Part shown: positions 9,286 through 46,874 of the stretch, in pieces
Position numbering within the stretch: position 1 is the first letter of the stretch
Layout: each line of letters opens with the position of its first letter
Source: Bacillota bacterium
Lineage (GTDB): Bacteria; Bacillota_I; Bacilli_A; RFN20; CAG-288
Reading direction: 5' to 3'
NCBI GenBank assembly: GCA_036830315.1
Contig: DAISOU010000002.1
Coordinates: forward strand, 45,132-109,131
DNA length: 64,000 bases
Made by a program: the position numbers and the translations under genes
Notes under the pieces: generated by a model
Told to the model about the DNA's origin: nothing
The model's database searches: none
Seen by the model: only the letters and a program-made list of their open reading frames with translations

Positions 9286-9287
9286 CA

Positions 9288-10746: not shown

Positions 10747-10799
10747 GTTTAAACTGAGTCTGCGTTTAGGAAAGCGCTATTTCAAGGGAGGACTTGGAA

Positions 10800-12578
10800 A
10801 TGAATATCATGAAGAAAAGAAGAACTGTCACCTTATTCTCAGCCTTAGCTGTTTTAGTAAGCGTCGGTGCTTTAGCCTCTTGCAGTAACGGCGGCTCTAG
10901 TGAAATCAAAACTGAAGATATGATAAAACTGGAAGCTGAAAAAGCCGTTGTCAGGGGAACACCTTCTTCCGGAAGTGCCTTCCTTGTCGAATCGGATGAA
11001 GACAGCAAAGTCCAGGCCACTGGCTGGGAATATATCGGTAATTTAGCCGTTATCGATAATTCCATCACTTGGGTCTTTGAAGGATCCAAAGAAGGAAAAC
11101 AGGATTTTATTCTGACAGTCTCCAATACTCAGATGGCCTCGGTCAAGTTAGAAGACCAGGGCAATATCAAAGTCAATGATGTCGATGCCACTTTCAGTTT
11201 AAGCCTTGATAGCGGAGACGGCAAAGGCGAGAACTGGCAGAAGGTCACAGTCACAGCCTCCAATATCAAGTCGGGATATAACTTCATCGTCTTATCCGTC
11301 AAAGCCAACACTTTGTCTGATGATGGCTCAATCTGTGCTCCTAATGTCGATAACATCTATATCCCCAAAGACGGGAACTCTACTCATACCCATGATTTCA
11401 CCGATACTTCAAGCGGAGACTGTCTGACAGCCGGTTATACCCATTCCGAATGCGATGACTGCGGAATCAGCTATGATCACGATTATACCAATCCTGTCGG
11501 CCATCAAGTCGGCGAAGACGGAATCTGTTCTGTCTGCGGCAAGAAAGTCTATAGCTATGAAGCTGAAAATGCCGATATCAGTGGAGTTGTATCCAGTTAT
11601 GGTTCTGTAATCGATATCAATTCTGCCGCCTCTAACGGCTATTCTGTGGGAAGCTTTTCCAAAGTCGGGAATACCCTGGCTTTTAAAATCGACTCCACTA
11701 TAAGCGATGAAGTGACTTTTGTCTTCCGTCTTTCATCGACTAGATGGGCGGATGGCTCGACTGGCGGAAACGTCAATATCGCTTCTACTCAGGTGACAGA
11801 TGTTCTGACAATCTCCTTGAATGAAACTGAGATAACTCCTAGTTCGATTCTTCCGGGAAGTAATGGAGAATACTATTTCAACTGGGCCAATGCCATCACT
11901 AAAGCCACTGTCAATGAAGGCGAAAACTCTTTGAAGATCGTCTCTAAGACTGATGCCGGCGCTCCCAATATCGACGTTGTTCAGATGACTGCCGACAATG
12001 CTGTTCTCTCCTGGACTGATATCGATAATGTCGGTGACAGCTCTGCTTCACAAAACGAACATAACAAAGTCACTGCCACGATGCCCGATTATGTTCACGC
12101 CAATCAGTTTGTCTATGAGAGCGAAGATGCTGTCATCACCGGCGGAAGCGTTAAAGACAATGAGACCGATACCTCAAACAATAAGTTTGTCGGTGATCTC
12201 TTCAATGGAAATTCCATCACCTATAATTTCACTTCCTCAGAGGCCGGTGTCGGAAACCTCATCTTCAAGATGGCATCAACCTGCGCTATCTGGAATAACG
12301 GCGTTGCCCAGAATATGGTCGACTTCAATCTGGCTGAGAATACTGCTATGACTTTAAATGGAACCGCAGTCGACTTGTCTTCTTTGCTTTTGAAAGGATA
12401 TCCTAGCGAGAACTTCTTCAACTGGAATTACCTTTCTCTGACTGATGCCGCACTTTTAAAGGGTGAGAACATAGTCGTCTTTGAAATTCCCTACTCCTGG
12501 GGCGGACCTAATATGGATAATCTGATTGTCGACAGTGATCTGACAATCGAAAAGACTGTCATCACTCCTCAGGCTTAA
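10800..12578 (+). CDS. Lipoprotein with three CBM6/35-like modules and a Cys-rich insert
   Basis: ATG at 10800 is 7 nt after AAGGGAGGA. Lipobox GALASC. Three module starts carry the [YL]E[AS]E signature of CBM6/35 (KLEAEKAVVRG, YSYEAENADISG, FVYESEDAVITGG). A CxxC-type insert spans 11385-11543. Confidence 0.8.
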   Translation: MNIMKKRRTVTLFSALAVLVSVGALASCSNGGSSEIKTEDMIKLEAEKAVVRGTPSSGSAFLVESDEDSKVQATGWEYIGNLAVIDNSITWVFEGSKEGKQDFILTVSNTQMASVKLEDQGNIKVNDVDATFSLSLDSGDGKGENWQKVTVTASNIKSGYNFIVLSVKANTLSDDGSICAPNVDNIYIPKDGNSTHTHDFTDTSSGDCLTAGYTHSECDDCGISYDHDYTNPVGHQVGEDGICSVCGKKVYSYEAENADISGVVSSYGSVIDINSAASNGYSVGSFSKVGNTLAFKIDSTISDEVTFVFRLSSTRWADGSTGGNVNIASTQVTDVLTISLNETEITPSSILPGSNGEYYFNWANAITKATVNEGENSLKIVSKTDAGAPNIDVVQMTADNAVLSWTDIDNVGDSSASQNEHNKVTATMPDYVHANQFVYESEDAVITGGSVKDNETDTSNNKFVGDLFNGNSITYNFTSSEAGVGNLIFKMASTCAIWNNGVAQNMVDFNLAENTAMTLNGTAVDLSSLLLKGYPSENFFNWNYLSLTDAALLKGENIVVFEIPYSWGGPNMDNLIVDSDLTIEKTVITPQA

Positions 12579-12614
12579 GACCAGACTATTAAAAAAACTG
12601 ACTGAAAATTAACG

Positions 12615-12641
12615 GAAGACCGGACAATATCCGGTCTTCTT
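12615..12641 (+). terminator. Terminator-like hairpin (weak T tract)
   Basis: GAAGACCGG-acaatat-CCGGTCTTC followed by only TT. Confidence 0.45.
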
Positions 12642-12663
12642 AGATGAAATCAAAGGAGACTCT

Positions 12664-15429
12664 ATGAAAGCAAAACGTTTTCTGATTATGAATGTCGCTA
12701 TCATTTCCTCATTGTCTGTTTTACTTATCACCGCCAATATCGTCATTTCCGTCTTTCATAATGCCATCAATCTCGCTCTTTCAGGATCTGGTGCCAATTA
12801 TCAGTCTGCAACAGCCCAGGAAGCTTATGATAAGGGCGCAGAAGTCGGTCGTCAGATTGAAGAAGAAGGATTGGTTCTCCTTAAAAACAACAATGGTGTT
12901 CTTCCTCTTGAAAACACGGAGAAAATAAATTTGTTCGGCTGGGCCTCATCCTCAGTCTTTTATGGAGGAAGCGGCAGCGGAACCAGTAATTCTTTAAGCG
13001 CTTTAGGCTTGCCGGAAGCGCTGAAGAAAAAAGGAATCGAGTGTAATCCTTCTTTAGTTTCTAAGTATGAGGAGTTCCAAAGCTAGAGAAAAGCCTCGGG
13101 TGTCGGAAGCGCCGATTGGTCGTTGCCAGAACCGGCTATTGATACTTATAGCGATGCTGATTTTTCTTCTTATCTGGCTTATTCTGACACAGCGATGATG
13201 GTTATCTCCCGTAACGGCGGAGAAGGAAACGATTTGCCTAAAGGCTATCTCACAATCACTGAAAATGAAAGAAACCTATTAGATAAGATCAAAACGAAAT
13301 TTGAAAAAGTAATCGTCTTAATCAATACTGGCAATGCCATGGAATTAGGATTCTTAGACGATGAGAAAATCGATGCCGCTGTCAATATCGGTTTCCCCGG
13401 TTCTCAGGGACTTGAAGGTGTAGCCAGTGTCATCAAAGGCGAAGTGTCGCCTTCAGGAAGACTGGTCGACACATACGCCTATGATTCTACTTCTGCCCCT
13501 TCTTATTTTGAATCGGCGGTCGATAACAATACTCTGGGCGTATTTCAATATTCCAATAAGGCCGGATACTATTACGTCGATTATAACGAAGGCATTTATG
13601 TCGGATATCGTTATTATGAAACCAGGTATTCACCCGATTCTCCTTCTCATGATGAAGGAATCGATTATTCCTCAGTCGTTCAGTATCCTTTTGGCTATGG
13701 ATTAAGCTATACGACTTTCGATTATGAGTTTGTCAGTTCCTCTCCGGAAAGAAATTCGGATGTTACTGCTGATAGCCAACTAAGTGTAAAGGTGAAAGTC
13801 ACTAACACCGGCTCTGTCAAAGGAAAAGACGTTGTCTCTCTCTACTATACAGCTCCTTATATTGCAGGACAGATTGAGAAATCATACGTCACCTTAGGAT
13901 CATTTGAAAAGACTAAGGAATTAGCTCCTAAAGAAAGCCAGATCTTGGAATTCACTATCAGCATGGAAGATATGGCATCATATGATTCTAATGATATGAA
14001 TAGAGATGGTTTCTGCGGATATACCTTAGACAAAGGAACATATTCTCTTCGTCTGTCAAAGAATTCTCATGAAAGACTGAAGGACGACAGCGCCTTCACT
14101 GTCGACTACAATCTGAAAACCAGTGCCAACATCATCAGAAGATCAAATGATAAGACTGATGTCACTAATCAGTATACTGGTGAAACTGCTGAAAACGGCA
14201 TAAGCGTCGATGGAAGTCAGGAGAAGACAAAAGTCGAATATGTATCCCGTTTGGACTTTGAAGGTACTCTTCCTCAAAAGAAGAGCCGTGAGATGACTTC
14301 AGAAGTCAATGCCTTGATCAATTATAAGACCGTTGATGACAAGGACGATGAGATGCCGAGAGTCAGCGAGGATTCAGGACTTGTCCTCAAAGACATGGAA
14401 GGTTTAGATTACTCGGACCCCAAATGGGAGACTCTCTTAAATCAGCTCAGTGTCAAGGAGATGAAGGAACTAATCGGAAAAGCCGGTTATCTGACAGCGA
14501 GGATCCCTTCTATCGAAAAAAGCAAGACCATCGATTTAGATGGTCCGGCCGGAATCAATGAATCCAATACCACTATCGGAACTGATACGAGTCACGCTGT
14601 CGCTTATCCCTGCGAGACTGTCATTGCTCAGACTTTCAATAAAGATGTCGCCTACTCGATGGGTTATGCGGTTGGAAAAGAAGCCGATGCCTATGGTATC
14701 AATGGCTGGTATGCACCAGCCATGAATCTTCATCGTTCTCCTTATTCTGGAAGAAACTTCGAATACTATAGCGAGGACCCCTATCTTTCCGGAGTTATGG
14801 GCTCTAATGTCTCTAAAGGCGCTAAGGATATGGGACTCTATACTTACGTCAAGCACTTTGCCGTCAATGATCAGGAAACCAAAAGAGATGCTAACGGCAT
14901 CTATACCTGGCTGACTGAGCAGTCCATGCGCGAATTATATCTCAAGCCCTTTGAGATGACCGTGAAAGACGGTTCAGCCACGGCCTTTATGTCTTCTTTC
15001 AATCGAATCGGAGCCACTTGGGCTGGAGGAAGCCATTCTCTTCTGACTACTATCCTCAGAAACGAATGGGGATATCAGGGCATGGTTATCACTGATTGGT
15101 ATTATCCAGGCAACTATATGAATATCGACCAGGGACTGAGAGCCGGAAATGACTGCTGGCTGAACGGCTTGGGTCTGGATGTCACTTTCGATACTTCTTC
15201 CTCTACTTCGGTCAAGAAGATGAGAGAATCCTCTCATCATATCCTCTATACGATTGCCAATGCGACAATCGTCTCCAAGGAAGCCGACAATACCTGGGTG
15301 ATATACGTCTATGTCATCGATGCCATCTTAGTAGTTGAACTGGGATTTTATCTCACTATGACTATCTTTGGATATAAGAAGAAACTGAAGAGCGAATCAA
15401 ATAAGAATGATTTGAAACAGGGTGAATAG
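12664..15429 (+). pseudogene. GH3 exo-glycosidase (GH3-1) interrupted by a single in-frame TAG at 13084-13086
   Basis: ORFs 12664..13086 and 13123..15429 share one frame, separated only by the TAG. The downstream ORF starts at a TTG with no RBS. Together they reproduce the full paralog architecture: N-terminal TM, EEGLVLLKNNNGVLPL, then TAG, then ISRNGGEGNDLP, VQYPFGYGLSYTTF, VTNTGSVKGKDVVSLYY, WYAPAMNLHRSPYSGRNFEYYSEDPYLSG, KHFAVNDQETKR, GYQGMVITDW and a C-terminal TM. Confidence 0.8.
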
Positions 15430-15431
15430 AA

Positions 15432-18400
15432 ATGAAAAACAATAAAAAGAAAATGAAGGCAAAGACTTTTGCCTTCATCATGTCGGGTGCTGTCTTGGTG
15501 ACTGTCAGTTTTGGAATTGTCTTTACTCTTCTGACAACCACTTATTTTGATCCGGTCCTAAGAGACTTCTTCGGTGAACAGGCCAGTGCGACTGGATCAC
15601 TTTCCGGAAGCGATGATGTCATCTATGACAAGATGGATTTTTCTACCGTCAAGGAACTTGAGGATTATGAGACTTCTTTAGTCCGTGAAATCGGCGGAGA
15701 GGGATATGTCCTTTTAAAGAATGACACTGCTAATGGCAAAGGTCTTCCTATTGCCACTGATAAGAACAATAAAACCAAACTCAGTCTTTTCTCTCATTCC
15801 TCGGTTGATATCGTTGCCGGAGGTACGGGGTCTGGTGTCGGAACTTCAAATTTGACTTTAAAAGACGCACTTGAAAACAACAATTATGATGTGAATGACA
15901 CCCTGTGGAATTTCTATGCCACCGGAAACGGCAAAGGCTATAAGAGAGGTTCAGGTTCTATCAATTACGGTCAGGGTGAAGATTGGTCGATCAATGAATG
16001 CCCCTTAAGCAAACTTCAGGGTGAATCAGGTTTACTGGCCTCAACTGATAATTCCACAGCCGTCTATGTTCTTTCAAGAACTGGCGGAGAAGGACGTGAC
16101 TTAGGAAGATCGATGACTAATTTCACTTCTGCTGCCGCTGACAAGAACAAGAGCTATCTAGAACCGGATTCAGTCGAATTAGGTGTCATCTCTTATTTGA
16201 ATGACAACTTTGACAATGTCATCCTTCTTGTGAACACCAACAACGTGATGGAATTAGGCTGGGTAGAAGACTACGAAAACATCAATTCTGTGCTTTGGGT
16301 ACCGGGAGGAGGCGGGGAGGCCGCTAACTCTATTGCTGATGTAATAGTAGGAAATGTCACTCCTTCTGGACATCTGACTGATACGATGGCCTATGACGCT
16401 TTCTCCTCTCCGGCCATGAAGAACATGGGCGATTTCCAGTATACGGTCTCCGGAAACTCAACTGGCTATTACGGCGTCTCTTATGACGAGGGCATCTATG
16501 TCGGATATAAGTATTATGAGACTCGCTATTATGATTCCGTCATGAATCAGGGCAATGTCGGAGACTATGACTATTCGACTTCGGTCCAGTATCCTTTTGG
16601 ATATGGCTTAAGCTATACCACCTTTGACTGGACTAACTATAAGTCATCATCGATGGATAAAGATGGCAACATCGAAATCAGCGTCGATATCAAGAATACC
16701 GGCTCTGTCAAAGGTAAAGAAGTTGTCCAAGTATATCTAGAGTCTCCTTATACTGATTACGACAGAGAAAACCATATTGAGAAGTCAGCTGTGTCCTTAG
16801 TCGGATATGCCAAGACTTCTTTATTGGAACCTGGGTCCAGTGAGACTGTCAAAGTCACAGTAAGCAGAGATGATTTTGTCTCTTATGATGATACTAAGGC
16901 CAAGACCTATATTCTAGACCAGGGAGACTACAATCTGACAGCTGCCTCTGATGCTCATAAAGCAACCAACAATATTCTTGCCAAACACGATAAGGTCATG
17001 GGCGGAAAGATGGATGAAAACGGAAACAAAGACTTTGTCTCTACCTGGACCAATTCAAATTTAGATACTTCAACCTATTCCAAGTCTGAAAAAGGAACTG
17101 AAGTGACTAATAGGTTCGATGGCGATAACTTAGAAGGCTCTAATTACATCAATCGCGACAAATACCTGAGCAGAAACGACTGGACTAATACTTTCCCGGT
17201 GACTCACGGCAATCAAAACCGCAAAGTAAAGAGCACCTATGGCGAAGTAAACGGATATTCCTACCAGGAAGAAATCACTTCTGACTTGAAGAAGAAACTT
17301 GATCTTAAAGGAACATCAGAAGCAGCCAAGACTCCTCTTTCTGACGAAGATGCCGCCAGTAAAGCGGGTGAGATGGGGAAAGACGGAGACTTAGAACTCA
17401 TCGATTATCGCGGAAAAGCCTATGACGACAAGGACTATGAAGAACTGGCCAGTCAGGTTACGACGAAAGAAGCCGGCAAAATCATCAATCTGGCAGGTTA
17501 TACCAGTGAAAAGGCCAGTTCGATTCAAAAGCCTAAGGCAATTGATCTTGACGGACCGATGGGCCTTAACAATATGGCCACCCATGAACCTTATTCAATC
17601 TCCTATCCTTCGGAGGTGACTATCGCCGCTTCCTTCAATGACACACTTTCGGAAAAGCATGGAAACGCCGTAGCCAATGACGGACTTAAGACTACTGTCA
17701 AAGCGTCAGGCTGGTATGCTCCCGCCATGAATATTCACCGGACACCTTTTGCGGGAAGAAACTTCGAATACTATTCAGAAGATAGCTATATGTCGGGAAA
17801 GATGGCAATAGCTGCTACCACCGGTGCCGCAAAGAAAGGAATGTATTCCTTCGTCAAGCACTTTGCCCTCAATGATCAAGAAGATCATCGAAGCGATAAC
17901 GGCTTAGTGACCTGGTGCAACGAGCAGGCTATGCGTGAAATCTATCTTAAACCATTCCAGATGGTCGCTGAGGCAAAGCCGGTAACTATGAGCTACTACG
18001 AAAAAGACAATGACGGAAACTTAAGAGCCAAGACGACTGAGATGCCTCTGTTAAGAGCAGTTATGTCCTCCTTCAATCGTATCGGATACACCTGGGCTGG
18101 AGGAGATTACCGTCTTATTACCGAAGTTTTGAGAAACGAGTGGGGATTCAACGGTTTTGTTCTTACTGATTACAGTCTCGGAGCAACTAGCTATATGCAT
18201 ACGGAACAGATGCTCAGAGCCGGCGGAGACGGACAGTTGACTCAGTATGGAAACTCCTATGCGATCACCAACGATACTCAGGTCTATTATTCGAAGCAGG
18301 CTTTGAAACATATCCTCTTCACTGTCGTCAATTCCAATGCTATGAACGGCTTCAAGAACGGGACTGTTGTTGCCGATACACCTTTCGCCAATTATTACTA

Positions 18401-18524
18401 TATTGTCATCAGCGTCGATATCCTTCTTCTTCTTGCAGTCGGCGGATTTGTCACTCTGACTGTTCTTCGCTTCAAGAAGGAAAAGCAGGGTAAGGAAATC
18501 GCAAAAGAAACCTCTGACATATAA
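15432..18524 (+). CDS. GH3 exo-glycosidase (GH3-2), N- and C-terminal TM anchors
   Basis: Motifs: GEGYVLLKND, LSRTGGEGRDL, VQYPFGYGLSYTTF, IKNTGSVKGKEVVQVY, IDLDGPMGL, WYAPAMNIHRTPFAGRNFEYYSEDSYMSG, KHFALNDQEDHR, MSSFNRIGYTWAGG, GFNGFVLTDY. TM helices sit at both ends. Confidence 0.9.
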   Translation: MKNNKKKMKAKTFAFIMSGAVLVTVSFGIVFTLLTTTYFDPVLRDFFGEQASATGSLSGSDDVIYDKMDFSTVKELEDYETSLVREIGGEGYVLLKNDTANGKGLPIATDKNNKTKLSLFSHSSVDIVAGGTGSGVGTSNLTLKDALENNNYDVNDTLWNFYATGNGKGYKRGSGSINYGQGEDWSINECPLSKLQGESGLLASTDNSTAVYVLSRTGGEGRDLGRSMTNFTSAAADKNKSYLEPDSVELGVISYLNDNFDNVILLVNTNNVMELGWVEDYENINSVLWVPGGGGEAANSIADVIVGNVTPSGHLTDTMAYDAFSSPAMKNMGDFQYTVSGNSTGYYGVSYDEGIYVGYKYYETRYYDSVMNQGNVGDYDYSTSVQYPFGYGLSYTTFDWTNYKSSSMDKDGNIEISVDIKNTGSVKGKEVVQVYLESPYTDYDRENHIEKSAVSLVGYAKTSLLEPGSSETVKVTVSRDDFVSYDDTKAKTYILDQGDYNLTAASDAHKATNNILAKHDKVMGGKMDENGNKDFVSTWTNSNLDTSTYSKSEKGTEVTNRFDGDNLEGSNYINRDKYLSRNDWTNTFPVTHGNQNRKVKSTYGEVNGYSYQEEITSDLKKKLDLKGTSEAAKTPLSDEDAASKAGEMGKDGDLELIDYRGKAYDDKDYEELASQVTTKEAGKIINLAGYTSEKASSIQKPKAIDLDGPMGLNNMATHEPYSISYPSEVTIAASFNDTLSEKHGNAVANDGLKTTVKASGWYAPAMNIHRTPFAGRNFEYYSEDSYMSGKMAIAATTGAAKKGMYSFVKHFALNDQEDHRSDNGLVTWCNEQAMREIYLKPFQMVAEAKPVTMSYYEKDNDGNLRAKTTEMPLLRAVMSSFNRIGYTWAGGDYRLITEVLRNEWGFNGFVLTDYSLGATSYMHTEQMLRAGGDGQLTQYGNSYAITNDTQVYYSKQALKHILFTVVNSNAMNGFKNGTVVADTPFANYYYIVISVDILLLLAVGGFVTLTVLRFKKEKQGKEIAKETSDI

Positions 18525-18572: not shown

Positions 18573-18788
18573 TTACTTCTTTTTCTTTTTGTATATGATG
18601 AGAAGTACTATTCCAGACAAAAGGAAGAATACGAATAAGACAATCATGCTGATACCCATATTGACCCCGAGATTATAGGCGTTGGTATTATCAGGATTCA
18701 TCCTGAGATTATGAAAAGAAGCTCCGGTTATCAGTGATATCAAGGAGAGAGCAAAAGAGATTATCGTAAGAGTTTTTAATTTTTTCAT
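18573..18788 (-). CDS. Small two-TM membrane protein (71 aa)
   Basis: MKKLKTLTIISFALSLISLITGA...MGISMIVLFVFFLLSGIVLLIIYKKKKK. Two hydrophobic helices and a Lys tail. Function unknown. Confidence 0.55.
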   Translation of the reverse strand: MKKLKTLTIISFALSLISLITGASFHNLRMNPDNTNAYNLGVNMGISMIVLFVFFLLSGIVLLIIYKKKKK

Positions 18789-18949: not shown

Positions 18950-20863
18950 TTAGGCCTTAGGAGCGTTATAAGTGACGACTAAAGCAGGAATATCCCAGTT
19001 AGCACCGTTTTTGGCGATGCTGTAGGTGTAGTTTCCTAAGGTGATAGGCGCATATTCTTCAGCAACACTGGTTTTCAAGTCAGCAGCGTGACCGTCGCCG
19101 CTGAGGACTCCGTCTGGTCCTCCAAAGTGAACTAAGAAATCATATACTACGGTCTCACTATGAAGAGAAGCGATTGTCGATACCGGGATATTGAAAGTCC
19201 AGGTTTTGTCTTCGTTGATGGTTAAGGAAGTCAAGGCGCCGGCGACAGTATTATCGTAGCCGTTGACCCATCCCTGATGATCGACATTGTCGTTGTGCTG
19301 GAAATCATAGACTAAGCCAGTTAGTTCGCCGGCCGGATAGCCTTTGCTAGTTCCTTTGATTTGGTAGTTGACGATTGTATTTTCTTCAACAGCTGTCTGG
19401 ACTAAATTGACTGAAGTGGGAGTAATAGAGTTTGATTTTACGACATTTCCGCTGACGCAGTCATAGTTATCAGAGTTCGAGAAGAGGTTGTAATCAAGGT
19501 TATCGATAGTGACGGTGTTTTCTTCATAAGTCAGACCAAGACCAATCCAGGTAGGTCCTTTGATGCTGTTATTATAGGCATCAGTTTCTTCCTGAGTGTT
19601 TCCACTGGCCTTCAATTCATGGACAATACCCTCGGCATCATGACGATAGGTATCACCGCCTAAATGATGGACCTTTAAGTCAGTCGCATTTGTCGCATTG
19701 TTCCAGACAAAACGTCCGATATGATCAAGTCCGTCTTCGGTGATTCCTAAATCGGAATAAGAAGCCTTGATGGTCCAGGTCTTGTCGGCATTCAAGGTAG
19801 GAGTAAGGTTAGAAACTCTGGTAGAAGCCCAATCGCCGCCTCGTTTCATGAACTCAAGACCGGCTGTCGACGCAAAGGAGGCTTCGGTTTCAGCATTGAA
19901 ACCGACAGTCTCGCCTCTGACTACAACAGTGGCGACGTTATTCTCATTGACTAGGGAAGCCTTCGTGGCCTGACACTGAGTCTTTTCATAGACGGCCTTA
20001 TAGACGACGGTATCTTCGCTTTCGACATAAGCGACGATTTCCTTGTCAAAACCGCGGAAGATATAGATGCCGTTTTCATCAGTCGGTTTCTGGGGGATTT
20101 CCTCACTGAAGGCAGGTACATCATCGGCATTGATCTCATCGATGGCCTGAATGATGGAATCATCGTAGTTTACGAAGGTTACTTTATGTTTGGCAGTCAG
20201 ACTTTCAATCGTGACGGCGATAGTTTTGACGATAACCTTGTCTTCGGAATTTTTGCCGACTGAGGTGACAGTGACATTACAGGTGCCTTCTTTTACGGCA
20301 GTGATGAGTCCGGTATTGCTGACAGTGGCAATTGCGGCATCAGAAGAGGCATAGGCAACACCCTTTTCAGTAGCGTTTGCAGGTAAGACAGTGGCAGTTA
20401 TCTGTTTGGTCTCGCCTTCCTTTAAAAGAGCCTTAGAGAAGTCGACAGTCAAATCAGAAATGGCAGTGGCCTTGACTTGTACGGCGATTGTCTTGACGAC
20501 CTTGTTTCCGTCTGCCTTTTTGCCCTTGGAAGTTACAGTGATGGTAGCGGAGCCGATACTCTTTCCTTCGATGACGCCTTCATTGGTGACAGTGGCGATT
20601 TCGGCCTTGTCAGTTGAATACTCAAATCCTTTAGTGGTGGTGTTTTTAGGAGCGATGGTGGCGGTGATGGTTTTTCTTTCTCCTACTTCGAGTTCAGCCG
20701 TGGTGAAGTCGATTGAGAAGTCAGTGATGTAGACTGTGGCAGCAGAAGATGGTTTTGTGGAAGAAGTCTCATTTGTAGGGGAAGTATTGCTGGTTGTTCC
20801 TTTGGAACATCCAGTTAAGATGAGTGCAGGCAACAGAACTAAAAGCATCTTTCTAAGTTTCAT
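18950..20863 (-). CDS. Surface lipoprotein with two Big_2 domains and one Listeria-Bacteroides-type repeat
   Basis: Lipobox LILTGC. Two Big_2 copies (ELEVGERKTITATIAPKNTTTKGFEYSTDKAEIATVTNEGVIEGKSIGSATITVTS and LKEGETKQITATVLPANATEKGVAYASSDAAIATVSNTGLITAVKEGTCNVTVTS). Next comes HKVTFVNYDD...GIYIFRGFDKEI. The ~350-aa C-terminal region is unrecognised. Confidence 0.85.
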   Translation of the reverse strand: MKLRKMLLVLLPALILTGCSKGTTSNTSPTNETSSTKPSSAATVYITDFSIDFTTAELEVGERKTITATIAPKNTTTKGFEYSTDKAEIATVTNEGVIEGKSIGSATITVTSKGKKADGNKVVKTIAVQVKATAISDLTVDFSKALLKEGETKQITATVLPANATEKGVAYASSDAAIATVSNTGLITAVKEGTCNVTVTSVGKNSEDKVIVKTIAVTIESLTAKHKVTFVNYDDSIIQAIDEINADDVPAFSEEIPQKPTDENGIYIFRGFDKEIVAYVESEDTVVYKAVYEKTQCQATKASLVNENNVATVVVRGETVGFNAETEASFASTAGLEFMKRGGDWASTRVSNLTPTLNADKTWTIKASYSDLGITEDGLDHIGRFVWNNATNATDLKVHHLGGDTYRHDAEGIVHELKASGNTQEETDAYNNSIKGPTWIGLGLTYEENTVTIDNLDYNLFSNSDNYDCVSGNVVKSNSITPTSVNLVQTAVEENTIVNYQIKGTSKGYPAGELTGLVYDFQHNDNVDHQGWVNGYDNTVAGALTSLTINEDKTWTFNIPVSTIASLHSETVVYDFLVHFGGPDGVLSGDGHAADLKTSVAEEYAPITLGNYTYSIAKNGANWDIPALVVTYNAPKA

Positions 20864-20937
20864 GATTAATACCTATAAAAGCCCTTTCATTTAGCTTACA
20901 GGTATATTTAAAATCATTAATAAGTCTTCTCTTTTAG

Positions 20938-20968
20938 TTTTTCGTAAGCCTCTTAGAATATTTCGCAA
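20938..20968 (-). promoter_or_regulatory. Candidate LytTR-type operator: two direct repeats phased 21 bp apart, upstream of the 18950..20863 gene
   Basis: On the minus strand: TTGCGAAATA (20968-20959) and TTACGAAAAA (20947-20938), 21 bp start to start, ~75 nt before the ATG at 20863. Confidence 0.55.
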
Positions 20969-21271
20969 CCAAGTTAATTTTTTAGGAAATAATACGTTTT
21001 ATCCAGAATGTGAAAAGCTAAAAAATGACGATAAAAATAATCAAATTAATCAAGAAATAATCAACTGGCTTTTTCTCTATATTTCATTAGCGATAATCGA
21101 GATAATTTACCCACCGCCAAAGAATAAACGACAGGTGTTTTCTTATGTCTTTCAATCAATTATAATGCCCTTGTTTATCGCTATTTCTTTATGCTTTATA
21201 GAAAGACTGTCTTTAAGAAAGAAGAATCCTTCAATTGATTTCTTAGTCGCAAAAGCGATAAACAGCAACGG

Positions 21272-21304
21272 CTTTGCGAAATAAACCAATCACTTTGCGA
21301 AATA
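21272..21304 (+). promoter_or_regulatory. Candidate LytTR-type operator: perfect 12-bp direct repeat phased 21 bp apart, upstream of GH3-3
   Basis: CTTTGCGAAATA at 21272-21283 and again at 21293-21304. A TATATTATAA -10-like element at 21331-21340 follows ~27 nt later. The ATG is at 21366. Confidence 0.6.
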
Positions 21305-21365
21305 CTGAAAGGGCTTTTTTCCTAAGCCTTTATATTATAAAAGGAAACCAATAGGGGAGGACTAT

Positions 21366-24300
21366 ATGAAAAAAGGAAAAATCATCCAAATCGTAACGAT
21401 TGGAGCTATTGCGTCCTTGGTCGGAGTTATCAACGGTGTCTGTTTTGCTAATAGCAAGATGCTCAATAACTTCGCCTATATCAATCAGAATACGGATAAT
21501 AAGGAGACAGCTGTCAAAGGTGCCGCATTAGCAAAGAAGATCGAAGGAGAAGGCGCAGTCTTAGTCGACAATAACGGCACTCTTCCTCTTTCCAAAGATG
21601 TGACTAAAGCCAATGTCTTTGGCTGGTCTTCGACTCAGTGGGTGTATTCTGGCTCAGGAAGCGGCAGAGTCGATCATCTGGAAACAGATTTTCTTTCAGC
21701 CATGAAGGCTTACGGAATCAAGACCAATACCGACTTGACTGATTTCTACACTGACTTCCTTGGTGAACGACCGATGATGGGTAAGACTCAAAGCGGAAAT
21801 ACGGGAACGCTGAAAAGCTATGCCAGTGAGTTTTCTGTTTTATATGAACCTACTATTGAAAGCTATAGTTCTGACCTTCTTTCTGAGGCTAAGGACTTTT
21901 CCGATACGGCTTTTGTCATTATCTCCAGAGTCGCAGGTGAATCTAACGATTCTCCTAAATACCAGAGGTATTCCAATACAAAAGGCGGAAACAATAAACA
22001 GAACGACTTAGATCGAACCTACTTGGATATTTCCAAGGATGAAGAAGATCTATTGACTTACGTCACAGCCAATTACAAGAACACCATAGTCTTGGTCAAC
22101 TCTACCAATACTATGAATACGGAGTTCTTGAGCCGGTTTGATGTCGATGCCTGTATTGTCACTGGAGCTACCGGTCAAAATGGAGCTTCAGCTCTTCCTT
22201 ATATGATATACGGAGAAATCAATCCTAGCGGAAGACTCTCAGATACTTATGCCTATTCCTTAAAATCCAATCCTTCTTATTATGTTTCAGGTCCAGTTGA
22301 AAAGAATACGACTCAGAACTTTTATACCAATACGACTACTAAGGGAATTTATCCTAACGTCTCTGGCGTAAATAACGGAAATGTTTCTGATAATGCCGCT
22401 TATGAAGGCGCTCATTTCGTCGATTACTGCGAAGATATCTATTTGGGATATAAGTGGTATGAGACCGCCGATGCCGAGGGTTATTTTTCTTCTGTTGATA
22501 ACGAATACGGAAAAGGCTATGACGGCGTTGTTCAGTATCCTTTCGGATACGGAATGAGCTATACATCCTTTTCTAAAAACATTCAATCAACTTCAGTTAT
22601 CAAAGGGGAGACTTCACAAGACGATGTCATCGACATCAAAGTCAAAGTCAATAACACCGGTGAGGTAAAAGGCAAAGAGACGGTTCAGCTTTATCTTACT
22701 AAGCCCTACATAAAAGGCGGCATTGAAAAGAGCGAAGTCGAACTTGTTGATTTTAGTAAGACCTTAGAACTTCAGCCTGGTGATAATGAGTTAGTCGAAT
22801 TCAAGGTCAGACTTGCTGATTTTGCCGATTATGACGACACCAACAAAAATAACAATGGTTTCACAGGCTATGAACTGGAAAAAGGTGATTATGTCTTCAC
22901 CGTACGTGAAAACAGTCACGTAGTTTCAAAAGGCGATAACTCTTATACCTATAATCTTTCTTCTGATTTGAAGATTGAGACTGATTCGGTGACTGGTGAG
23001 AAGATTGAAAACAGACTTTTAGCGACTAGCGATGACGGTGTCAGTATTGACGGCAGTGATTCTGATCAGAACATCACCTATCTGAGCCGCGCTGATTTCA
23101 AGAATACTTATCCGACTGAAGAGGCTAATGCCAATCGTACTATGAGCGATGAATTGGTTCAGTTGAACAAAGACCAATATTCAAACAAAGTCGCTTCTGC
23201 TTTTGATGACAGACACGACTCAGATTATCAGGATGAACCGACATTCGGTGATGATAACGGACTGAAAATCTACGAAGACAAACAGGTCACTGACTTAGGT
23301 TATGAACTTGGCGCTGACTTTAACAGCGACAAGTGGAACAGCGTTTTAGATCAGGTCACTTTGGAAGAAGCCACTAATCTTTCTCTTCACGGCTACACTC
23401 ATAACGAAGCTGTCAATTCGATTGGCAAGCCCTATACCAGAGAAGTAGACGGTCCTAACCAGGCTGGGTCCTTCAATGTCTCAAGCGATGCCTTAGGTTA
23501 TCCCTGTGCCACAGTCTTAGCCCAGACTTTCAACAAGGAACTTTCTTATGAATACGGAAAGCAGTTAGGAAGCGAAGCCAAGTCTAATGGTTTTGATGGC
23601 CTCTATGCTGCCGGTATCAATATGCATCGTTCTCCTTTCTGCGGAAGAAATTACGAATACTGGTCCGAAGACAGCACCCTGACTGGAAAGATGGCCGCCA
23701 ATGAAATCAAAGGCGGATTGAATGTCGGAACCTATTTCTATATGAAACACTTCATCGCCTATGACCAGGAGACCTACCGTGACGGCTTATATACTTGGAT
23801 GACTGAGAGAAATCTCCGTCAAAACTATCTCAAACCCTTTGTCACCTGTATCAGAGAAGGCGGATTAAACGGCATCATGACTTCCTACAATCGCTTAGGT
23901 GCTACCTGGGCGGGCGGAAACTATTCTCTCATCCATGAACTTCTGGAAAAGGAGATCGGATATCAGGGAGCGATCATCACTGATTATTCCGATCATCAGG
24001 TCTTCATGAACGGCGATCAGTCTTTGCGTGCCGGCGGCAGTCTCTGGATGGACGGCTATGCCAATAACGGCAAGTATATCTATGACAAGACTTCTATCAC
24101 TTTCAAAAACTGCCTGAGAGAAGCGACCAAGAGAAACCTCTACACCTATCTCAATACTGCCTATATCAATAAGAAGTTTGTTGAAAACGGAGACTCTGAT
24201 TATCTCAATGTCCATAAACCCACTCCTTATTATTGGTGGACAACCGTCATCTATAGTCTCGATGCTCTTTCAGTTATCGGCTTAGGTCTGTGGCTGACTT

Positions 24301-24368
24301 TGCTTCTCGTCAAAAATCACAGAGAATCAAATACTCTCACTCTCGATGATACGAAAGCAGAGAAATAG
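21366..24368 (+). CDS. GH3 exo-glycosidase (GH3-3), N- and C-terminal TM anchors
   Basis: RBS GGGGAGGA. Motifs: GEGAVLVDNNGTLPL, ISRVAGESND, VQYPFGYGMSYTSF, VNNTGEVKGKETVQLY, INMHRSPFCGRNYEYWSEDSTLTG, KHFIAYDQETYR, MTSYNRLGATWAGG, GYQGAIITDY. Confidence 0.9.
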   Translation: MKKGKIIQIVTIGAIASLVGVINGVCFANSKMLNNFAYINQNTDNKETAVKGAALAKKIEGEGAVLVDNNGTLPLSKDVTKANVFGWSSTQWVYSGSGSGRVDHLETDFLSAMKAYGIKTNTDLTDFYTDFLGERPMMGKTQSGNTGTLKSYASEFSVLYEPTIESYSSDLLSEAKDFSDTAFVIISRVAGESNDSPKYQRYSNTKGGNNKQNDLDRTYLDISKDEEDLLTYVTANYKNTIVLVNSTNTMNTEFLSRFDVDACIVTGATGQNGASALPYMIYGEINPSGRLSDTYAYSLKSNPSYYVSGPVEKNTTQNFYTNTTTKGIYPNVSGVNNGNVSDNAAYEGAHFVDYCEDIYLGYKWYETADAEGYFSSVDNEYGKGYDGVVQYPFGYGMSYTSFSKNIQSTSVIKGETSQDDVIDIKVKVNNTGEVKGKETVQLYLTKPYIKGGIEKSEVELVDFSKTLELQPGDNELVEFKVRLADFADYDDTNKNNNGFTGYELEKGDYVFTVRENSHVVSKGDNSYTYNLSSDLKIETDSVTGEKIENRLLATSDDGVSIDGSDSDQNITYLSRADFKNTYPTEEANANRTMSDELVQLNKDQYSNKVASAFDDRHDSDYQDEPTFGDDNGLKIYEDKQVTDLGYELGADFNSDKWNSVLDQVTLEEATNLSLHGYTHNEAVNSIGKPYTREVDGPNQAGSFNVSSDALGYPCATVLAQTFNKELSYEYGKQLGSEAKSNGFDGLYAAGINMHRSPFCGRNYEYWSEDSTLTGKMAANEIKGGLNVGTYFYMKHFIAYDQETYRDGLYTWMTERNLRQNYLKPFVTCIREGGLNGIMTSYNRLGATWAGGNYSLIHELLEKEIGYQGAIITDYSDHQVFMNGDQSLRAGGSLWMDGYANNGKYIYDKTSITFKNCLREATKRNLYTYLNTAYINKKFVENGDSDYLNVHKPTPYYWWTTVIYSLDALSVIGLGLWLTLLLVKNHRESNTLTLDDTKAEK

Positions 24369-24389
24369 TTTGAAACAGAGGAGAAAAAC

Positions 24390-26633
24390 ATGAAAAAACA
24401 ATTGAAATCGGTGGCTTTGCTAAGTCTCGCTTTAGGACTGTCAGGCTGTGCCGGTGCTGATTTGAGTTCTTCAGGCACATCAACCTCAGCCGTTCCGGAA
24501 ATCACCTATAAAGTCACTTCAATGACTATCGAGGCTAAACAGGACTACACCTATAAAGTCGGCTTCAAACTCGATAAGGAAGTCGAAGAAGGGACGGAAT
24601 TCTATCTTTCCGATAATTCCCGCTTTGAAAAAGACGATGATAAGAAGCTTTCAATCGAAAACACCGGTAACCAGTATTCGTTTATCTATTCTGAACCGGA
24701 AACGGAATTCTATCTTTTAGTAGTCGGTGACAACACCGCTTACTGCAAACAGAACGTCATTCTGCCGACTGTCAATCCTTTGATTGTCACCAAAGACAAT
24801 AAAGATGCCATCAGTTTTGTGAAGATGCAGGATGATAAGACTATCGATCAGTATTTCGTTTCCAATTCTCTTACAGTCTATCAGTCCTCAACTGCCGCTT
24901 TGGATAAGACGACAGCAGTAAAGGTCGTTGAAAACGGCGATCTTAGCAAGACTTATGATGTCAGTTCAGTCTCCGGTGCGGACTACTATACTTTGGAGTA
25001 TAAGACCTCTTCTAAGATTACCTATACTTCCAAGACCTTTAAGAAGGATGTTCCTTTTGGAAGTGATGTCTTCACTTTCCAAGGTGTCAGTCTAAATTCG
25101 GAAGGTGACTTAGTCATCCAGGGTTTAGTAAATGAGGGAGTGAAAAAAGGAAATCTCTGCATTGTGTCTTCTTCGGATACCCATGTGGTCAGAACTGCTT
25201 TGACTATCAAAGATGACAATACTTTCACAGTGTCTTTCAATCTTTCTTATCTCGCCACTGCCGATGTCGATTATCATCTCTACTTGGAATTAGGTGCCGG
25301 TTCCTTTGTCGAAGTTCCTGATATTATCGAGAAGGATCAGTCTGTCACCTTAGCTGAGAAAGTGGTCTTCTTAAAAGAATCCGGTGAGGGACTAGTAGTC
25401 TCTTATAAGGAAAAGCAGGCGATAACTGTCTTAAACGCCAGCATGGTAAAAGACACTGACGGAATCGTCTATTTTGAAGCATCAGGTCTCTATGATGAAA
25501 CCAAAGCAAATGTAGCTTTGTCTTCTCCAAGTCTCATTATCGACAACGACCAGAATGAAGTTGTCGATAAGCAGGTCTATCCTCTGACTGTCGATGAAAC
25601 AGCTAAGTCTTTTACAGTCAAGGCTAAGCTCAGTCAGCTAACTAAGCAGGGTGCCTGGTATAACGTTAAAATCTGGCTTAACACCACTTTAGAAGGAAGT
25701 ACTCCCACCTATGAGTTTTCCCATGATGACTGCACTAATCCGGATGTTTCCCTCAAGGATGACGTAAACGACAAGAAATTCTATTTCCAGAATTATGAGA
25801 ACTTCCTGAAAATCTATTATGACGATGTCTCCGCTTCAATCACCTCCTGGAATTACGTCAAGAAGGAAGGAGTCGTATATCTGCATTTAGAAGGAAATGA
25901 TGCTTCAAGTACCGTGACTGATAACTATGTCACCGTTTATCAGGACGGTGCACAGGATGACGGCCTCCACAGAGCAAACTGCGTCAAGGGAGAAGATGAT
26001 GCCTTCACTATCGATATCCCGATATCCGATATCAGTGCCGGTGTCAAATATCAGGTTCACTGGGTACGTGGAAACAACAACAGCGAAATAACCAATAACA
26101 CTCTTCCTAAGCCCAATTCGGTCTTAGCCAGTGATGACGGCTTCATCTACTGCGTCAAAGAAGGCGAGTGGAACGGAACTCATTGGTGGAAGGTCTATAA
26201 GGATAATGATATAGCTAAGGCTAATGATCTCTCCTTTGAATTGTCTGAAAACAAACCGGTGTTCACGCTGAAGGGTGCTTTAAACTCTGAATACAAGACA
26301 AAGGACCTCTATATCAGATATGGAGTTCTTAATGAAGACTCTACCTTTACTGACAGTTTCTATAGTTCTCTTGTCTTGGATGCCAACTTGAATTTTACCT
26401 CCGCTGCTGACTTGCAGTCCATGGTCAAGACGAAGGAATATGAAGCCCGTCTAGTTGAAAAATCAGGCGATGAGTATCTGGAGCTTCCTTCAGGTGCCAA
26501 TAGCTTCTGCGGCTTCTATAACGAATACCTGAGATCTGATTTTAGTTCTTCCTCTCTGACAACTGATTCTGGGACCTATTCAGTCGATACCTATAAAGAA
26601 GGCAATTACACTCTCTATCTCACTCTTAAATAA
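24390..26633 (+). CDS. Lipoprotein of an unrecognised family (paralog of 34136..36454)
   Basis: Lipobox LGLSGC. Shares blocks with the 772-aa protein (DYTYKVGFKLDKEVEEGTEFYLSD vs DYSYDISFSLSKDLQEGDVFFFSD; FYLLVVGDN vs FYLLIVDKD; DGFIYCVKEG vs DGFMFCVKTE). No known domain recognised. Confidence 0.8.
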   Translation: MKKQLKSVALLSLALGLSGCAGADLSSSGTSTSAVPEITYKVTSMTIEAKQDYTYKVGFKLDKEVEEGTEFYLSDNSRFEKDDDKKLSIENTGNQYSFIYSEPETEFYLLVVGDNTAYCKQNVILPTVNPLIVTKDNKDAISFVKMQDDKTIDQYFVSNSLTVYQSSTAALDKTTAVKVVENGDLSKTYDVSSVSGADYYTLEYKTSSKITYTSKTFKKDVPFGSDVFTFQGVSLNSEGDLVIQGLVNEGVKKGNLCIVSSSDTHVVRTALTIKDDNTFTVSFNLSYLATADVDYHLYLELGAGSFVEVPDIIEKDQSVTLAEKVVFLKESGEGLVVSYKEKQAITVLNASMVKDTDGIVYFEASGLYDETKANVALSSPSLIIDNDQNEVVDKQVYPLTVDETAKSFTVKAKLSQLTKQGAWYNVKIWLNTTLEGSTPTYEFSHDDCTNPDVSLKDDVNDKKFYFQNYENFLKIYYDDVSASITSWNYVKKEGVVYLHLEGNDASSTVTDNYVTVYQDGAQDDGLHRANCVKGEDDAFTIDIPISDISAGVKYQVHWVRGNNNSEITNNTLPKPNSVLASDDGFIYCVKEGEWNGTHWWKVYKDNDIAKANDLSFELSENKPVFTLKGALNSEYKTKDLYIRYGVLNEDSTFTDSFYSSLVLDANLNFTSAADLQSMVKTKEYEARLVEKSGDEYLELPSGANSFCGFYNEYLRSDFSSSSLTTDSGTYSVDTYKEGNYTLYLTLK

Positions 26634-26648
26634 GAGGACGTATCCTAA

Positions 26649-28139
26649 ATGAAAAACAAAAGTTTATTACTGCTTTCATCCTTAATGCTGATATCGGTTC
26701 CGTTTTCTCTCTCCGCCTGCGATAAAAAAGAAGAGATCAGTTCTCTTTCATCAGTGGAGCAGACAGTAAAAACACTTGAAATCGCCTCCAATCCCAAGAA
26801 GACTTCCTATGTCGAAGGACAGAGGTTCTCAAAAACGGGTCTTATTCTGAAGGCGACTTTAGAAGACGGTTCTTCTATCACTCCTAAGACCAGCGATGTA
26901 GTCATCACTCCTAATCGTGCTCTACAGACTTCCGATACTAAGGTGACAGCAACTTATAGGAAGACTGAAGTCGATATTCCAATCACTGTTGCTAAACGGG
27001 TCTTAGAAAACATCGTTGTCACCGAACCCACTAATCTGAAAGTCGGAGTCGGAGATGTCTATTCCTTCTCCGACTTGATTGTCTTTGCTCACTATAACGA
27101 TGAATCTGATGATGTGGAGCTGAAAGCCTCGGAATATAAACTCTCCATTAATGACAGTGAAGTCAAAAGCTCTGATATCTGCTCGTTAGATGAAGGCTCA
27201 TATACTGTCTTAGTCTCCTATCAGAACAAGACTTCTTCGTTTATGATCTCTGTCATCAAAATGACTGTCGCCGATGTCACTTTCACAAATCCTGTCTCCT
27301 TGTCCTTTGCTAAAGGAGGAAAATACGATTTCACGGGATTTGAAGCTCATGCAACCTTTAAAGAAGAAGGCGTCAAAGCTAAAAATCTTGATTTCAATCG
27401 TCTGAAATTCACCATCGGCGAAAAAGAAATCCATCACGGAGACGTCATAGAGTCAGATGACGGAACTTACAAAGTAGATGTGACAGTACTCAATACGGAA
27501 TCAGTCTTCAATTATTCCTTTGATATCGAGATCTTCGCCGGTTATAAGATTGAGGCTGAAGACTTGTCGGTCTTAGAAGAAAGTGAAATTCTCTCTGACT
27601 CATATGTTCGAGGAAAAGCTGAGAAAAACAGCGCCGACTATATTGATTATCACACTGACACTGTCTTACCTCTCTCCAGTAGAAATGATTCTCTCAAAGC
27701 TTCGGCTGGTCAGTATCTAGGTGAGATAAGAGGGGGCTGCTATATCGAATTCAACTTTAAGAGCGAAGTATCTCAGAAAGCCTCTATCAACATCAAAGCT
27801 GCTTCGACCTGGCTTAGAAAAGACAAAGACTGGAATCCTCTTTGGATGGGGGACATTCAGCTAAACGAAGTCTTCAAGGCAACAGCCAATGAGACGGCTG
27901 TAAACATAAGTGACGAGGTGATACTAAGTGGGTCTGGCGATATTGACAATACTGAGACTGGGGTGGCGGCGTGGGACAACTTTGAATCTGTCAGCTTTGG
28001 GGAGATGGATCTTGCTGTCGGCTGGAACAAGGTTTCGATAGAGATTGAACCGGAAAGCAAATTGGCCAAATATGTCAATTCTCACGGTTCCTTCACAATT
28101 ATGAATATTGATTATCTGTTAGTCGGCTTCAAAAAATAG
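26649..28139 (+). CDS. Lipoprotein with Big_3-like Ig repeats and a C-terminal CBM6/35-like module
   Basis: Lipobox SLSAC. Repeats are of the type LEIASNPKKTSYVEGQRFSKTGLILKATLEDGS. The C-terminal module starts YKIEAEDLSVLEE. Confidence 0.8.
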   Translation: MKNKSLLLLSSLMLISVPFSLSACDKKEEISSLSSVEQTVKTLEIASNPKKTSYVEGQRFSKTGLILKATLEDGSSITPKTSDVVITPNRALQTSDTKVTATYRKTEVDIPITVAKRVLENIVVTEPTNLKVGVGDVYSFSDLIVFAHYNDESDDVELKASEYKLSINDSEVKSSDICSLDEGSYTVLVSYQNKTSSFMISVIKMTVADVTFTNPVSLSFAKGGKYDFTGFEAHATFKEEGVKAKNLDFNRLKFTIGEKEIHHGDVIESDDGTYKVDVTVLNTESVFNYSFDIEIFAGYKIEAEDLSVLEESEILSDSYVRGKAEKNSADYIDYHTDTVLPLSSRNDSLKASAGQYLGEIRGGCYIEFNFKSEVSQKASINIKAASTWLRKDKDWNPLWMGDIQLNEVFKATANETAVNISDEVILSGSGDIDNTETGVAAWDNFESVSFGEMDLAVGWNKVSIEIEPESKLAKYVNSHGSFTIMNIDYLLVGFKK

Positions 28140-28148
28140 GAGAAACAA

Positions 28149-31076: not shown

Positions 31077-31085
31077 CGACAATAG

Positions 31086-31116
31086 GGGCTAGGGTTGTGC
31101 CCTAGCCCTTATTTAT
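31086..31116 (+). terminator. Strong hairpin between GH3-4 and GH3-5
   Basis: GGGCTAGGG-ttgtg-CCCTAGCCC followed by TTATTTATT. Confidence 0.7.
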
Positions 31117-31129
31117 TGAAAGGAACAAA

Positions 31130-46173: not shown

Positions 46174-46192
46174 GGAAAGGATAACAGTATAA

Positions 46193-46864: not shown

Positions 46865-46874
46865 GGATTAGACC

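Follow-up and report, generated by a model that had tools for sequence, protein, structure and literature searches.

Which regulator, if any, acts on the intergenic gap around 20.9-21.3 kb of the 64-kb stretch of DNA analysed here (the window)? The gap is 502 bp long with 30% GC. It separates the gene for a Big_2-domain lipoprotein (18950-20863, minus strand) from a tightly packed five-gene operon on the plus strand (21366-34042) that encodes a GH3 protein of 1000 aa, proteins of 747 aa and 496 aa, and GH3 proteins of 975 aa and 970 aa. The three GH3 enzymes are circularly permuted, and the one at 21366 bears a C-terminal transmembrane helix. Four copies of a short repeat lie in the gap. On the plus strand an exact 12-mer, CTTTGCGAAATA, occupies 21272-21283 and again 21293-21304, 21 bp apart start to start; it contains the distal half-site DR1 (TTGCGAAATA, 21274-21283) and, 21 bp on, the proximal half-site DR2 (TTGCGAAATA, 21295-21304), which face the GH3 operon. 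On the minus strand a distal TTGCGAAATA (20968-20959) and a proximal TTACGAAAAA (20947-20938), also with a period of 21 bp, face the lipoprotein gene. The half-site is the 10-nt sequence TTRCGAAAWA, with the exact repeat on the plus side extending to 12 nt, and the spacer of each window pair measures 11 nt, compared to 11-12 nt in all relatives. A preliminary description of this DNA had reported both pairs and their 21-bp phasing, and we confirmed coordinates and letters on both strands.

Each pair lies upstream of a candidate promoter. On the plus strand, a -10-like box, TATATTAT (21331-21338, within TATATTATAA, 21331-21340), begins 26 nt past DR2, in agreement with the approximately 27 nt described before. 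A TTGACA-like -35 is missing from the GH3-side promoter, as would suit dependence on an activator. On the minus strand, weak AT-rich -10-like hexamers (TTAAAT/TAAATA, 20905-20911) are found 26-27 nt past the proximal half-site. These -10 boxes were assigned by eye; a scan for consensus promoters and terminators did not call the proposed promoters, as is expected where the -35 is absent. The distance from the end of DR2 to a TATAAT-like hexamer was 26-28 nt in 12 sites, none of which had a TTGACA-like -35, and the same spacing was seen in the related loci L005, L007, L008, L024, and L136. Two other features of the gap were set aside: the small ORFs within it were taken as spurious, and a riboswitch or leader-RNA reading was rejected, as we found no Rfam family and no stable fold (z = 0.25).

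This arrangement resembles the operators of LytTR-type response regulators, which consist of two 9-11-nt repeats separated by an 11-13-nt spacer and have no family-wide consensus (PMC4847170). In tabulated promoters the order is repeat, 12 bp, repeat, 4-11 bp, -35, 13-17 bp, -10 (PMC6193735, Tables 2-3). Repeat length, spacer, and promoter placement here fit these published measures (PMC4847170, PMC6193735), with a transcription start that is predicted, and the LytTR-type geometry proposed earlier is borne out: the sites have 10-nt repeats, an 11-12-nt spacer, and a weak -35 close downstream. The 26-28 nt to the -10 correspond to 3-5 bp from a -35 hexamer set 17 bp upstream of the -10.

The surrounding island (~1-50 kb) encodes such regulators. 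It contains ten GH3-type ORFs, CBM6 and Big_2/Big_3 proteins, large lipoproteins without a Pfam match, and exactly three regulator pairs, each composed of a receiver plus LytTR response regulator (RR) and a HATPase_c_5 (AgrC-type) kinase (HK). These are RR1/HK1 (8557-10652, plus strand; RR1 8557-9285), RR2/HK2 (40417-38368, minus strand), and RR3/HK3 (40587-42604, plus strand; RR3 40587-41297). Within the second pair, RR2 (39713-40417), with receiver and LytTR domains, is the binder that we propose below, and HK2 (38368-39711) is a HATPase_c_5 kinase that spans the membrane about seven times and lacks a large external loop. The third gene of the RR2-HK2 operon always encodes a CBM6 protein, here of 620 aa, with a single transmembrane segment at the N terminus and the CBM6 domain outside the cell (36528-38390, minus strand). 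The Pfam scan of the island ORFs (1-50 kb; several large ORFs have no Pfam match) revealed no transcription factor other than the LytTR proteins.

We considered whether the repeats are chance occurrences or remnants of duplication in an AT-rich spacer, without a regulatory role. The 30% GC content of the spacer makes this conceivable, as does the presence in the gap of other AT-rich 20-bp-phased repeats (AAATAATCAA), and matches to the pattern arise by chance in many bacterial genomes. The bare phased pattern had at least 120 exact matches in 596 Gb of sequence from 185,579 species genomes, mostly in unrelated taxa, and by a hand estimate ~70 or more would be expected by chance; among the matches listed, only one (L024) has RR2 context. 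The scatter of these matches over unrelated phyla is about what chance would give and is not evidence of enrichment. Because the bare pattern is not rare across bacteria, its significance rests on context and conservation. Within the window, TTRCGAAAWA has four matches in 64 kb, all in this gap, compared to 0.63 expected, and a count of four was reached in 1 of 100 shuffles. No exact repeat with a period of 20-22 bp in the 64 kb exceeds the 12-nt one in length; when the intergenic DNA of the window (3.5 kb) was shuffled 2000 times, 7 shuffles attained this length.

Conservation argues against chance. Other assemblies supplied GH3 orthologues that are 64-69% identical (L005/L006, L007, and L008). 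Their divergent promoter regions span 204-614 bp and are otherwise unalignable; each has two opposed half-site pairs at a 21-22 bp period. On the plus strand the pairs, given as half-site, spacer length, half-site, are TTACGAAATA-12-TTACGAAATT in L005, TTACGAAACA-11-TGACGAAAAG in L007, and CCACGAAAAA-11-TTGCGAAATA in L008, and on the minus strand they are TTACGAAAAA-11-CTACGAAAAG, TTACGAAAAA-11-TGGCGAAATC, and TTACGAAATA-11-TTACGAAAAA, respectively. In the GH3-side promoters of these orthologues the proximal half-site is followed after 26-28 nt by TATAAT or TATATT. In an unbiased k-mer count, the four regions had no 8-mers in common other than TTACGAAA, TACGAAAA, and ACGAAAAA, pieces of TTACGAAAAA; no other element of the orthologous intergenic DNA is as well conserved as the half-sites. 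Half-sites, phasing, orientation, and distance to the -10 have been kept in several diverged lineages, whereas spacers and flanks have not. The shuffle tests also disfavor chance. We give an accidental origin next to no weight and regard it as effectively refuted already by the conservation of these sequences. GH3 orthologues at 52-53% identity (L009, L010, and L013) were without CGAAA repeats or without upstream DNA, suggesting that the motif does not extend beyond a narrower clade or beyond loci linked to RR2.

To locate further sites we used a weight matrix derived from the four orthologous GH3 promoters, with 16 half-sites in all. In the window, the two focal pairs ranked at the top, with 29.2 bits for the Big_2-side pair and 28.9 bits for the GH3-side pair; a 19.6-bit match at 20988 simply overlaps the Big_2-side distal half-site. 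The next independent site (36496-36526, minus strand, 19.5 bits) lies upstream of a gene for a 772-aa lipoprotein and has the form TTATGAAATA-N11-TAACGAAATA, with half-sites at 36526-36517 and 36505-36496 and a period of 21 bp. It is followed after 26 nt by TAAACT (36469-36464), and an extra half-site copy, ATACGAAATA, sits beside it at 36489-36480. The preliminary description had noted that the core recurs here; the recurrence is real and keeps its 21-bp period, in a weaker form. L024, L215, L216, L217, L218, and L219 each have a site at the corresponding position. The matrix scan found no motif at the other GH3 operons (10794-18524 and 42820-49869) and no site in the RR2 promoter region (40466-40586) or the RR2/RR3 divergent region. 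Autoregulation is common, though not obligatory, in LytTR systems, and in this respect the RR2 operon (40417-34136) offers only the internal weaker site at 36496-36526. For RR1 and RR3 we saw no convincing candidate operator within the window. Two copies of GTGTTWTTC at 40504/40525, considered as an RR1/RR3 operator, were not significant by count and were discarded.

Which of the three regulators do the repeats belong to? In L005, the neighboring regulator and kinase are orthologues of RR2 and HK2 (63% and 51% identity, respectively), as opposed to ~35% identity to RR1 and RR3, and their operon (RR-HK-613 aa-767 aa) matches the window operon 40417-34136. In L024, a Clostridiales MAG, genes for an RR2-like regulator (47%), an HK2-like kinase (44%), and a CBM6 protein directly precede a phased pair, TTACGAAATA-N11-TTGCGAAAAA, with TATTAT 26 nt on and then a gene for a permuted GH3 enzyme. 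A scan of metagenomes that started from an RR2 alignment gave 80 loci; 44 of these 80 loci, fetched with the regulator, include a GH3 gene as well. In L136-138, whose regulators are 41% identical to RR2, a GH3 gene runs divergently from the RR-HK pair, and its promoter contains TTGCGAAAAA-N11-TTACGAAATG, followed after 27 nt by TATAAT. L005, L024, L135, L136, and L215-L219 all encode an RR2 homologue no more than 10 kb from the motif.

We also performed a blind scan, in which every pair phased at 20-22 bp was scored on both strands over the whole 2-20 kb of each locus. The set comprised seven loci (L135, L136, and L215-L219) picked by RR2 homology only, at 41-79% identity; L215-L219 were picked by identity level and available length, and their regulators are 79, 58, 54, 57, and 48% identical to RR2. 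The module of RR, HK, and a protein of ~615 aa was present in all five of L215-L219. In 7 of 7 loci the top pair was intergenic and flanked the RR-HK-615-aa module, usually preceding a GH3 or other glycanase gene with a -10-like hexamer 26-28 nt on. The site in L215 (9903, 18.4 bits) comes after the 617-aa gene and is followed after 26 nt by TAAACT, as at 36.5 kb. Sites likewise come after the third gene in L216 (13884, 19.4 bits; 608-aa gene), L217 (13872, 21.2 bits; 614-aa gene), and L218 (4904, 19.2 bits; 613-aa gene). L216 has a second site (9925, minus strand, 19.1 bits) at the promoter of an operon, Big_3-GH3-GH3, that runs divergently from the regulator, and L219 has three, all intergenic (7662, 6558, and 13864; 20.0, 18.0, and 16.1 bits), the last of which precedes a 1949-aa GH3-CBM6 gene. 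The highest scores were in L135 (948, minus strand, 24.6 bits), where the site is divergent from the regulator and ~80 bp upstream, and L136 (9804, minus strand, 27.5 bits), at the GH3 promoter described above. One half-site was degenerate in five of the seven loci. The top scores were matched in 0-5 of 200 local shuffles per locus, with scores of 18-21 bits reached by 0.5-2.5% of shuffles.

By comparison, control loci totaling 834 kb, with regulators 33-42% identical, had no site of at least 18 bits. These data bear on the possibility that the repeats are indeed a LytTR operator and that the protein bound there is RR1, RR3, or several of the three. All three are receiver plus LytTR proteins in the same island, and the regulator in L136, beside a perfect site, is nearly as close to RR1 (38%) and RR3 (36%) as to RR2 (42%). 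However, in all motif loci with a single two-component system within 10 kb, RR2 is the best window match, and these loci also carry the RR2-specific operon of RR, HK, and the 615-aa CBM6 protein. Moreover, loci whose regulator best matches RR1 or RR3, a group in which true RR1/RR3 orthologues are not represented, had no site of at least 18 bits. We therefore judge binding by RR1 or RR3 to be improbable; the distribution points to a motif that tracks RR2/HK2 and not all three systems. Other 21-bp-phased repeats occupy the equivalent position in more distant RR-HK-GH3 modules (ACCGAATATC / ACCGATTATC; GTTTGCGACA / GTTTACGACA; two copies of AGAAAATGCGAATA; GTGWCGTTTATG; and CGTTGACGRCAG), as expected if half-sites differ from one LytTR subfamily to the next.

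The binder could also belong to another regulator family encoded elsewhere in the genome, such as an AraC/XylS-type activator. These activators use 21-bp-phased direct repeats abutting the -35 too, and the two kinds of site, LytTR and AraC-type, cannot be told apart by geometry alone. Polysaccharide loci of Firmicutes often encode AraC and AraC-CheY regulators (PMC5320581), and L217 encodes GntR- and HTH_30-domain proteins ~7 kb from its RR. Yet the Pfam-scanned ORFs of the 64-kb window include no AraC, LacI, or other such factor, nor do the called genes adjoining the sites in L215-L219, and in loci chosen by their RR the motif follows RR2 homologues across lineages. A regulator from outside the LytTR family accordingly seems to us even less probable than RR1 or RR3.

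We read the four repeats as two predicted operators of a LytTR response regulator, most likely RR2 partnered with HK2, and assign this reading a probability of about 0.75. From the sequence, its conservation, the geometry, and the co-occurrence with RR2 homologues, we infer binding, activation, and signal along the following lines. Phosphorylated RR2 would bind each TTRCGAAAWA pair as two protomers, two helical turns apart. Each pair would face its own promoter, ending 26-27 nt before a -10 where the normal -35 is missing, and bound RR2 would recruit RNA polymerase to activate the GH3 operon (21366-34042) and the Big_2 lipoprotein gene. Within the RR2 operon, the gene for the 772-aa lipoprotein would be driven by the weaker pair at 36496-36526, and a cre-like palindrome over both promoters would probably add catabolite repression. 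The signal, probably a beta-glucan-type glycan, would reach HK2, possibly via the co-transcribed CBM6 membrane protein. Relatives of the RR2 module adjoin GH16, GH30, GH81, and GH55-like enzymes, a pointer to beta-1,3/1,6-glucans. The preliminary description had seen in the repeats the operator linking the kinases of the island to its hydrolase genes. Conservation and co-occurrence with RR2 homologues support the LytTR part of that proposal; its scope narrows to RR2/HK2 rather than the kinases collectively, and to the promoters at 20.9-21.3 kb and 36.5 kb only.

Among known LytTR systems, a close architectural parallel is with the AgrA boxes of S. aureus P2/P3. There too a LytTR regulator is paired with a polytopic HATPase_c_5 (AgrC-type) kinase, direct repeats of ~9-10 nt with a 12-13-nt spacer lie just upstream of a poor -35, and a divergent regulatory region has one pair per promoter. 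The half-site here (TTRCGAAAWA), however, is unrelated in sequence, the targets are glycoside hydrolases rather than RNAIII or quorum-sensing genes, and the promoter of the regulator itself showed no site. No agrB- or agrD-like genes were recognized among the Pfam-scanned ORFs of the window, and the third gene of the operon encodes the CBM6 membrane protein instead. We do not class the system as Agr. AgrA and RR2 were not alignable by sequence search, and a structure search for mapping the DNA-contact residues of AgrA returned only receiver domains and one uncharacterized LytTR domain (3d6w).

The boxes of ComE, BlpR, and PlnC/PlnD, and those of S. mutans HdrR/BrsR, consist of a 9-bp repeat, 12 bp, and a 9-bp repeat (PMC6193735). 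Whereas ComE-type boxes lie 4-11 bp from the -35, the corresponding series here is 10 nt, 11-12 nt, 10 nt, and 26-28 nt to the -10. The ComE-type consensus (ACCNCTTAN-like) differs from the half-site here, and these regulators, unlike the one proposed here, are peptide-responsive and autoregulatory, with competence or bacteriocins under their control.

YpdB/BtsR of E. coli, which respond to pyruvate, resemble RR2 as LytTR regulators of nutrient uptake or utilization genes, and their site is a direct repeat of GGCATTTCAT with an 11-nt spacer. One YpdB site is of high affinity and one of low affinity (PMC4847170), recalling the pairs in L215-L218 and at 36.5 kb, in which one half-site is good and the other degenerate. 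The kinase in these systems, however, is of the LytS/5TM-Lyt type and not the AgrC type, and the target is a single transporter gene.

In gene content, PUL7, 21, and 33 of Butyrivibrio proteoclasticus B316 are similar: LytTR response regulators there adjoin secreted GH3 enzymes that carry a transmembrane helix at the C terminus (PMC2914790, 2010). The association is the same here, and the GH3 protein at 21366 has a matching helix, but PMC2914790 reports gene neighborhood only and no operator. A tblastn search of RR2 against plasmids returned only matches of 36% identity or less and no Butyrivibrio replicon, and our literature search found no paper that defines an operator for LytTR-GH3 systems. 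The cis-element is of a familiar kind; what is new is an operator candidate for a gene set without a described operator.

Polysaccharide sensing in Gram-positive gut and rumen bacteria is far less understood than in Bacteroidetes. A defined half-site (TTRCGAAAWA, 21-bp period, 26-28 nt to the -10) would make the regulon predictable in uncultured genomes and specifies which probes and mutations to use in binding and reporter assays. Sites assigned to RR2/HK2 would also tie an AgrC-type kinase to carbohydrate use instead of peptide quorum sensing.

An AgrC-type polytopic kinase is normally a peptide-pheromone receptor. In a bolder and rather doubtful interpretation, RR2, HK2, and the CBM6 protein may constitute a glycan-sensing "three-component" system, in which the AgrC-type kinase would obtain a carbohydrate signal through its CBM6 partner and TTRCGAAAWA-N11 would define the regulon. 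If so, many uncultured gut and rumen Firmicutes would have a beta-glucan regulon (GH3, GH16, GH30, GH81, GH55-like), and the route of sensing in these Gram-positive bacteria would be distinct from the AraC-hybrid, LacI, and anti-sigma routes.

A second motif lies at both promoters. The cre-like palindrome TGAAAGGGCTTTT (21306-21318, plus strand) comes immediately after the proximal half-site on the GH3 side, where the promoter would have its -35, and a second exact copy (20877-20889, minus strand) lies in the leader of the Big_2 gene; these are the only two copies in the 64-kb window. Compared to the ideal cre TGAAAGCGCTTTCA, 12 of 14 positions match and the palindromic AAAG..CTTT is present, whereas the central CG is replaced by GG and the strict WTGNAANCGNWNNCW consensus is failed. 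That strict consensus has only four matches in the window, all elsewhere and in coding regions, and no ccpA gene was seen in the window. A cre over the -35 region or in the leader is in a usual repressing position. We tentatively consider TGAAAGGGCTTTT a candidate operator for catabolite repression or for a LacI-type regulator, an assignment that we hold at somewhat below even odds on the basis of the letters and their placement. The palindrome is conserved in L007 and L008, and similar GAAAGCGCTTAC boxes (GAAAGSGCTT) occupy the same position in L013 and L202.

The module that encodes RR2, the LytTR regulator proposed to act at the TTRCGAAAWA half-sites, comprises three genes (40417-36528, minus strand) and was retained in every locus with an RR2 homologue (L005, L024 and L215-L219). 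The first gene specifies the LytTR response regulator and the second a 7-TM AgrC-type kinase. The product of the third, ~615 aa long, has a CBM6 domain and a single TM segment at its N-terminus. This CBM6 protein could serve as a carbohydrate co-sensor for its partner kinase, in which case a kind of kinase normally tied to peptide signals would here possibly be coupled to carbohydrate. In relatives of the island (L005, L009, L013, L216, L217 and L218), the permuted GH3 genes are accompanied by GH16, GH30, GH81 and LAM55 (GH55-like) enzymes. These partners suggest that the substrate is a beta-1,3/1,6-glucan, for example laminarin or fungal wall glucan. One of the RR2-homologue loci, L218 (ERZ724032 NODE_213), has a regulator with 57% identity to RR2, its own module and a putative operator, and it belongs to the same metagenome assembly as the contig of the window, NODE_82. 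If the two contigs derive from one genome, the organism would carry two paralogous systems with near-identical half-sites, raising the question of cross-talk between them.

Remoter LytTR-HK-GH3 modules, many of them from human-gut metagenomes, contain different direct repeats with 21-bp phasing (L139, L140, L144, L146, L160, L176, L181, L193, L202 and L209). These repeats, exemplified by ACCGAATATC/ACCGATTATC and GTTTGCGACA/GTTTACGACA, either follow the kinase gene or precede the GH3 gene, and each lies ~28 nt before a -10 box. Among the loci selected by response regulator, 44 of 80 have a GH3 gene. Within the window, the 121-bp divergent region separating the genes for RR2 and RR3, another of its three LytTR regulators, holds GTGTTTTTC (40504-40512) and GTGTTATTC (40525-40533), both on the plus strand and 21 bp apart. 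The pair could be an operator of one of the other regulators; its count alone is not significant (2 matches versus 1.24 expected). Among the matches listed by the pattern scan were contigs of Azoarcus sp. MAGs (L048 and L077) in which a 21-bp unit starting with TTACGAAAAA forms arrays of 4-7 tandem copies; these arrays are unrelated to the LytTR context.

The gap between the Big_2 lipoprotein gene and the GH3 operon contains two further kinds of repeat. At the GH3 promoter, the palindrome-like TGAAAGGGCTTTT (21306-21318, plus strand) overlaps the -35 position; a second, exact copy lies within the Big_2 leader (20877-20889, minus strand). Both copies are kept in the GH3 orthologue loci L007 and L008. 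The element is cre-like, matching the ideal cre at 12 of 14 positions, but its centre is GG where cre has CG. In addition, a 14-nt direct repeat, TTTTTCGTAAGCCT and TTTTTCCTAAGCCT, is found on the plus strand at 20938-20951 and 21316-21329. It may have arisen by chance: a rough estimate puts the expectation for the gap at ~0.2 pairs of this kind. The 21316-21329 copy is an inverted, degenerate half-site, reading TTAGGAAAAA on the minus strand, and sits between the GH3-side proximal half-site and the -10 box.

Elsewhere in the island, a 140-aa ORF (12664-13086, plus strand) contains the first part of a Glyco_hydro_3_C domain, and a 768-aa ORF 36 bp past it (13123-15429, plus strand) covers the remainder of a permuted GH3. 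Together they look like a single GH3 gene that a frameshift or stop has divided in two, and the identical split is present in other assemblies (L001 and L003). The intergenic stretch downstream of the Big_2 gene contains an unannotated 71-aa ORF (18573-18788, minus strand), whose product has two hydrophobic segments and ends in a lysine-rich tail.
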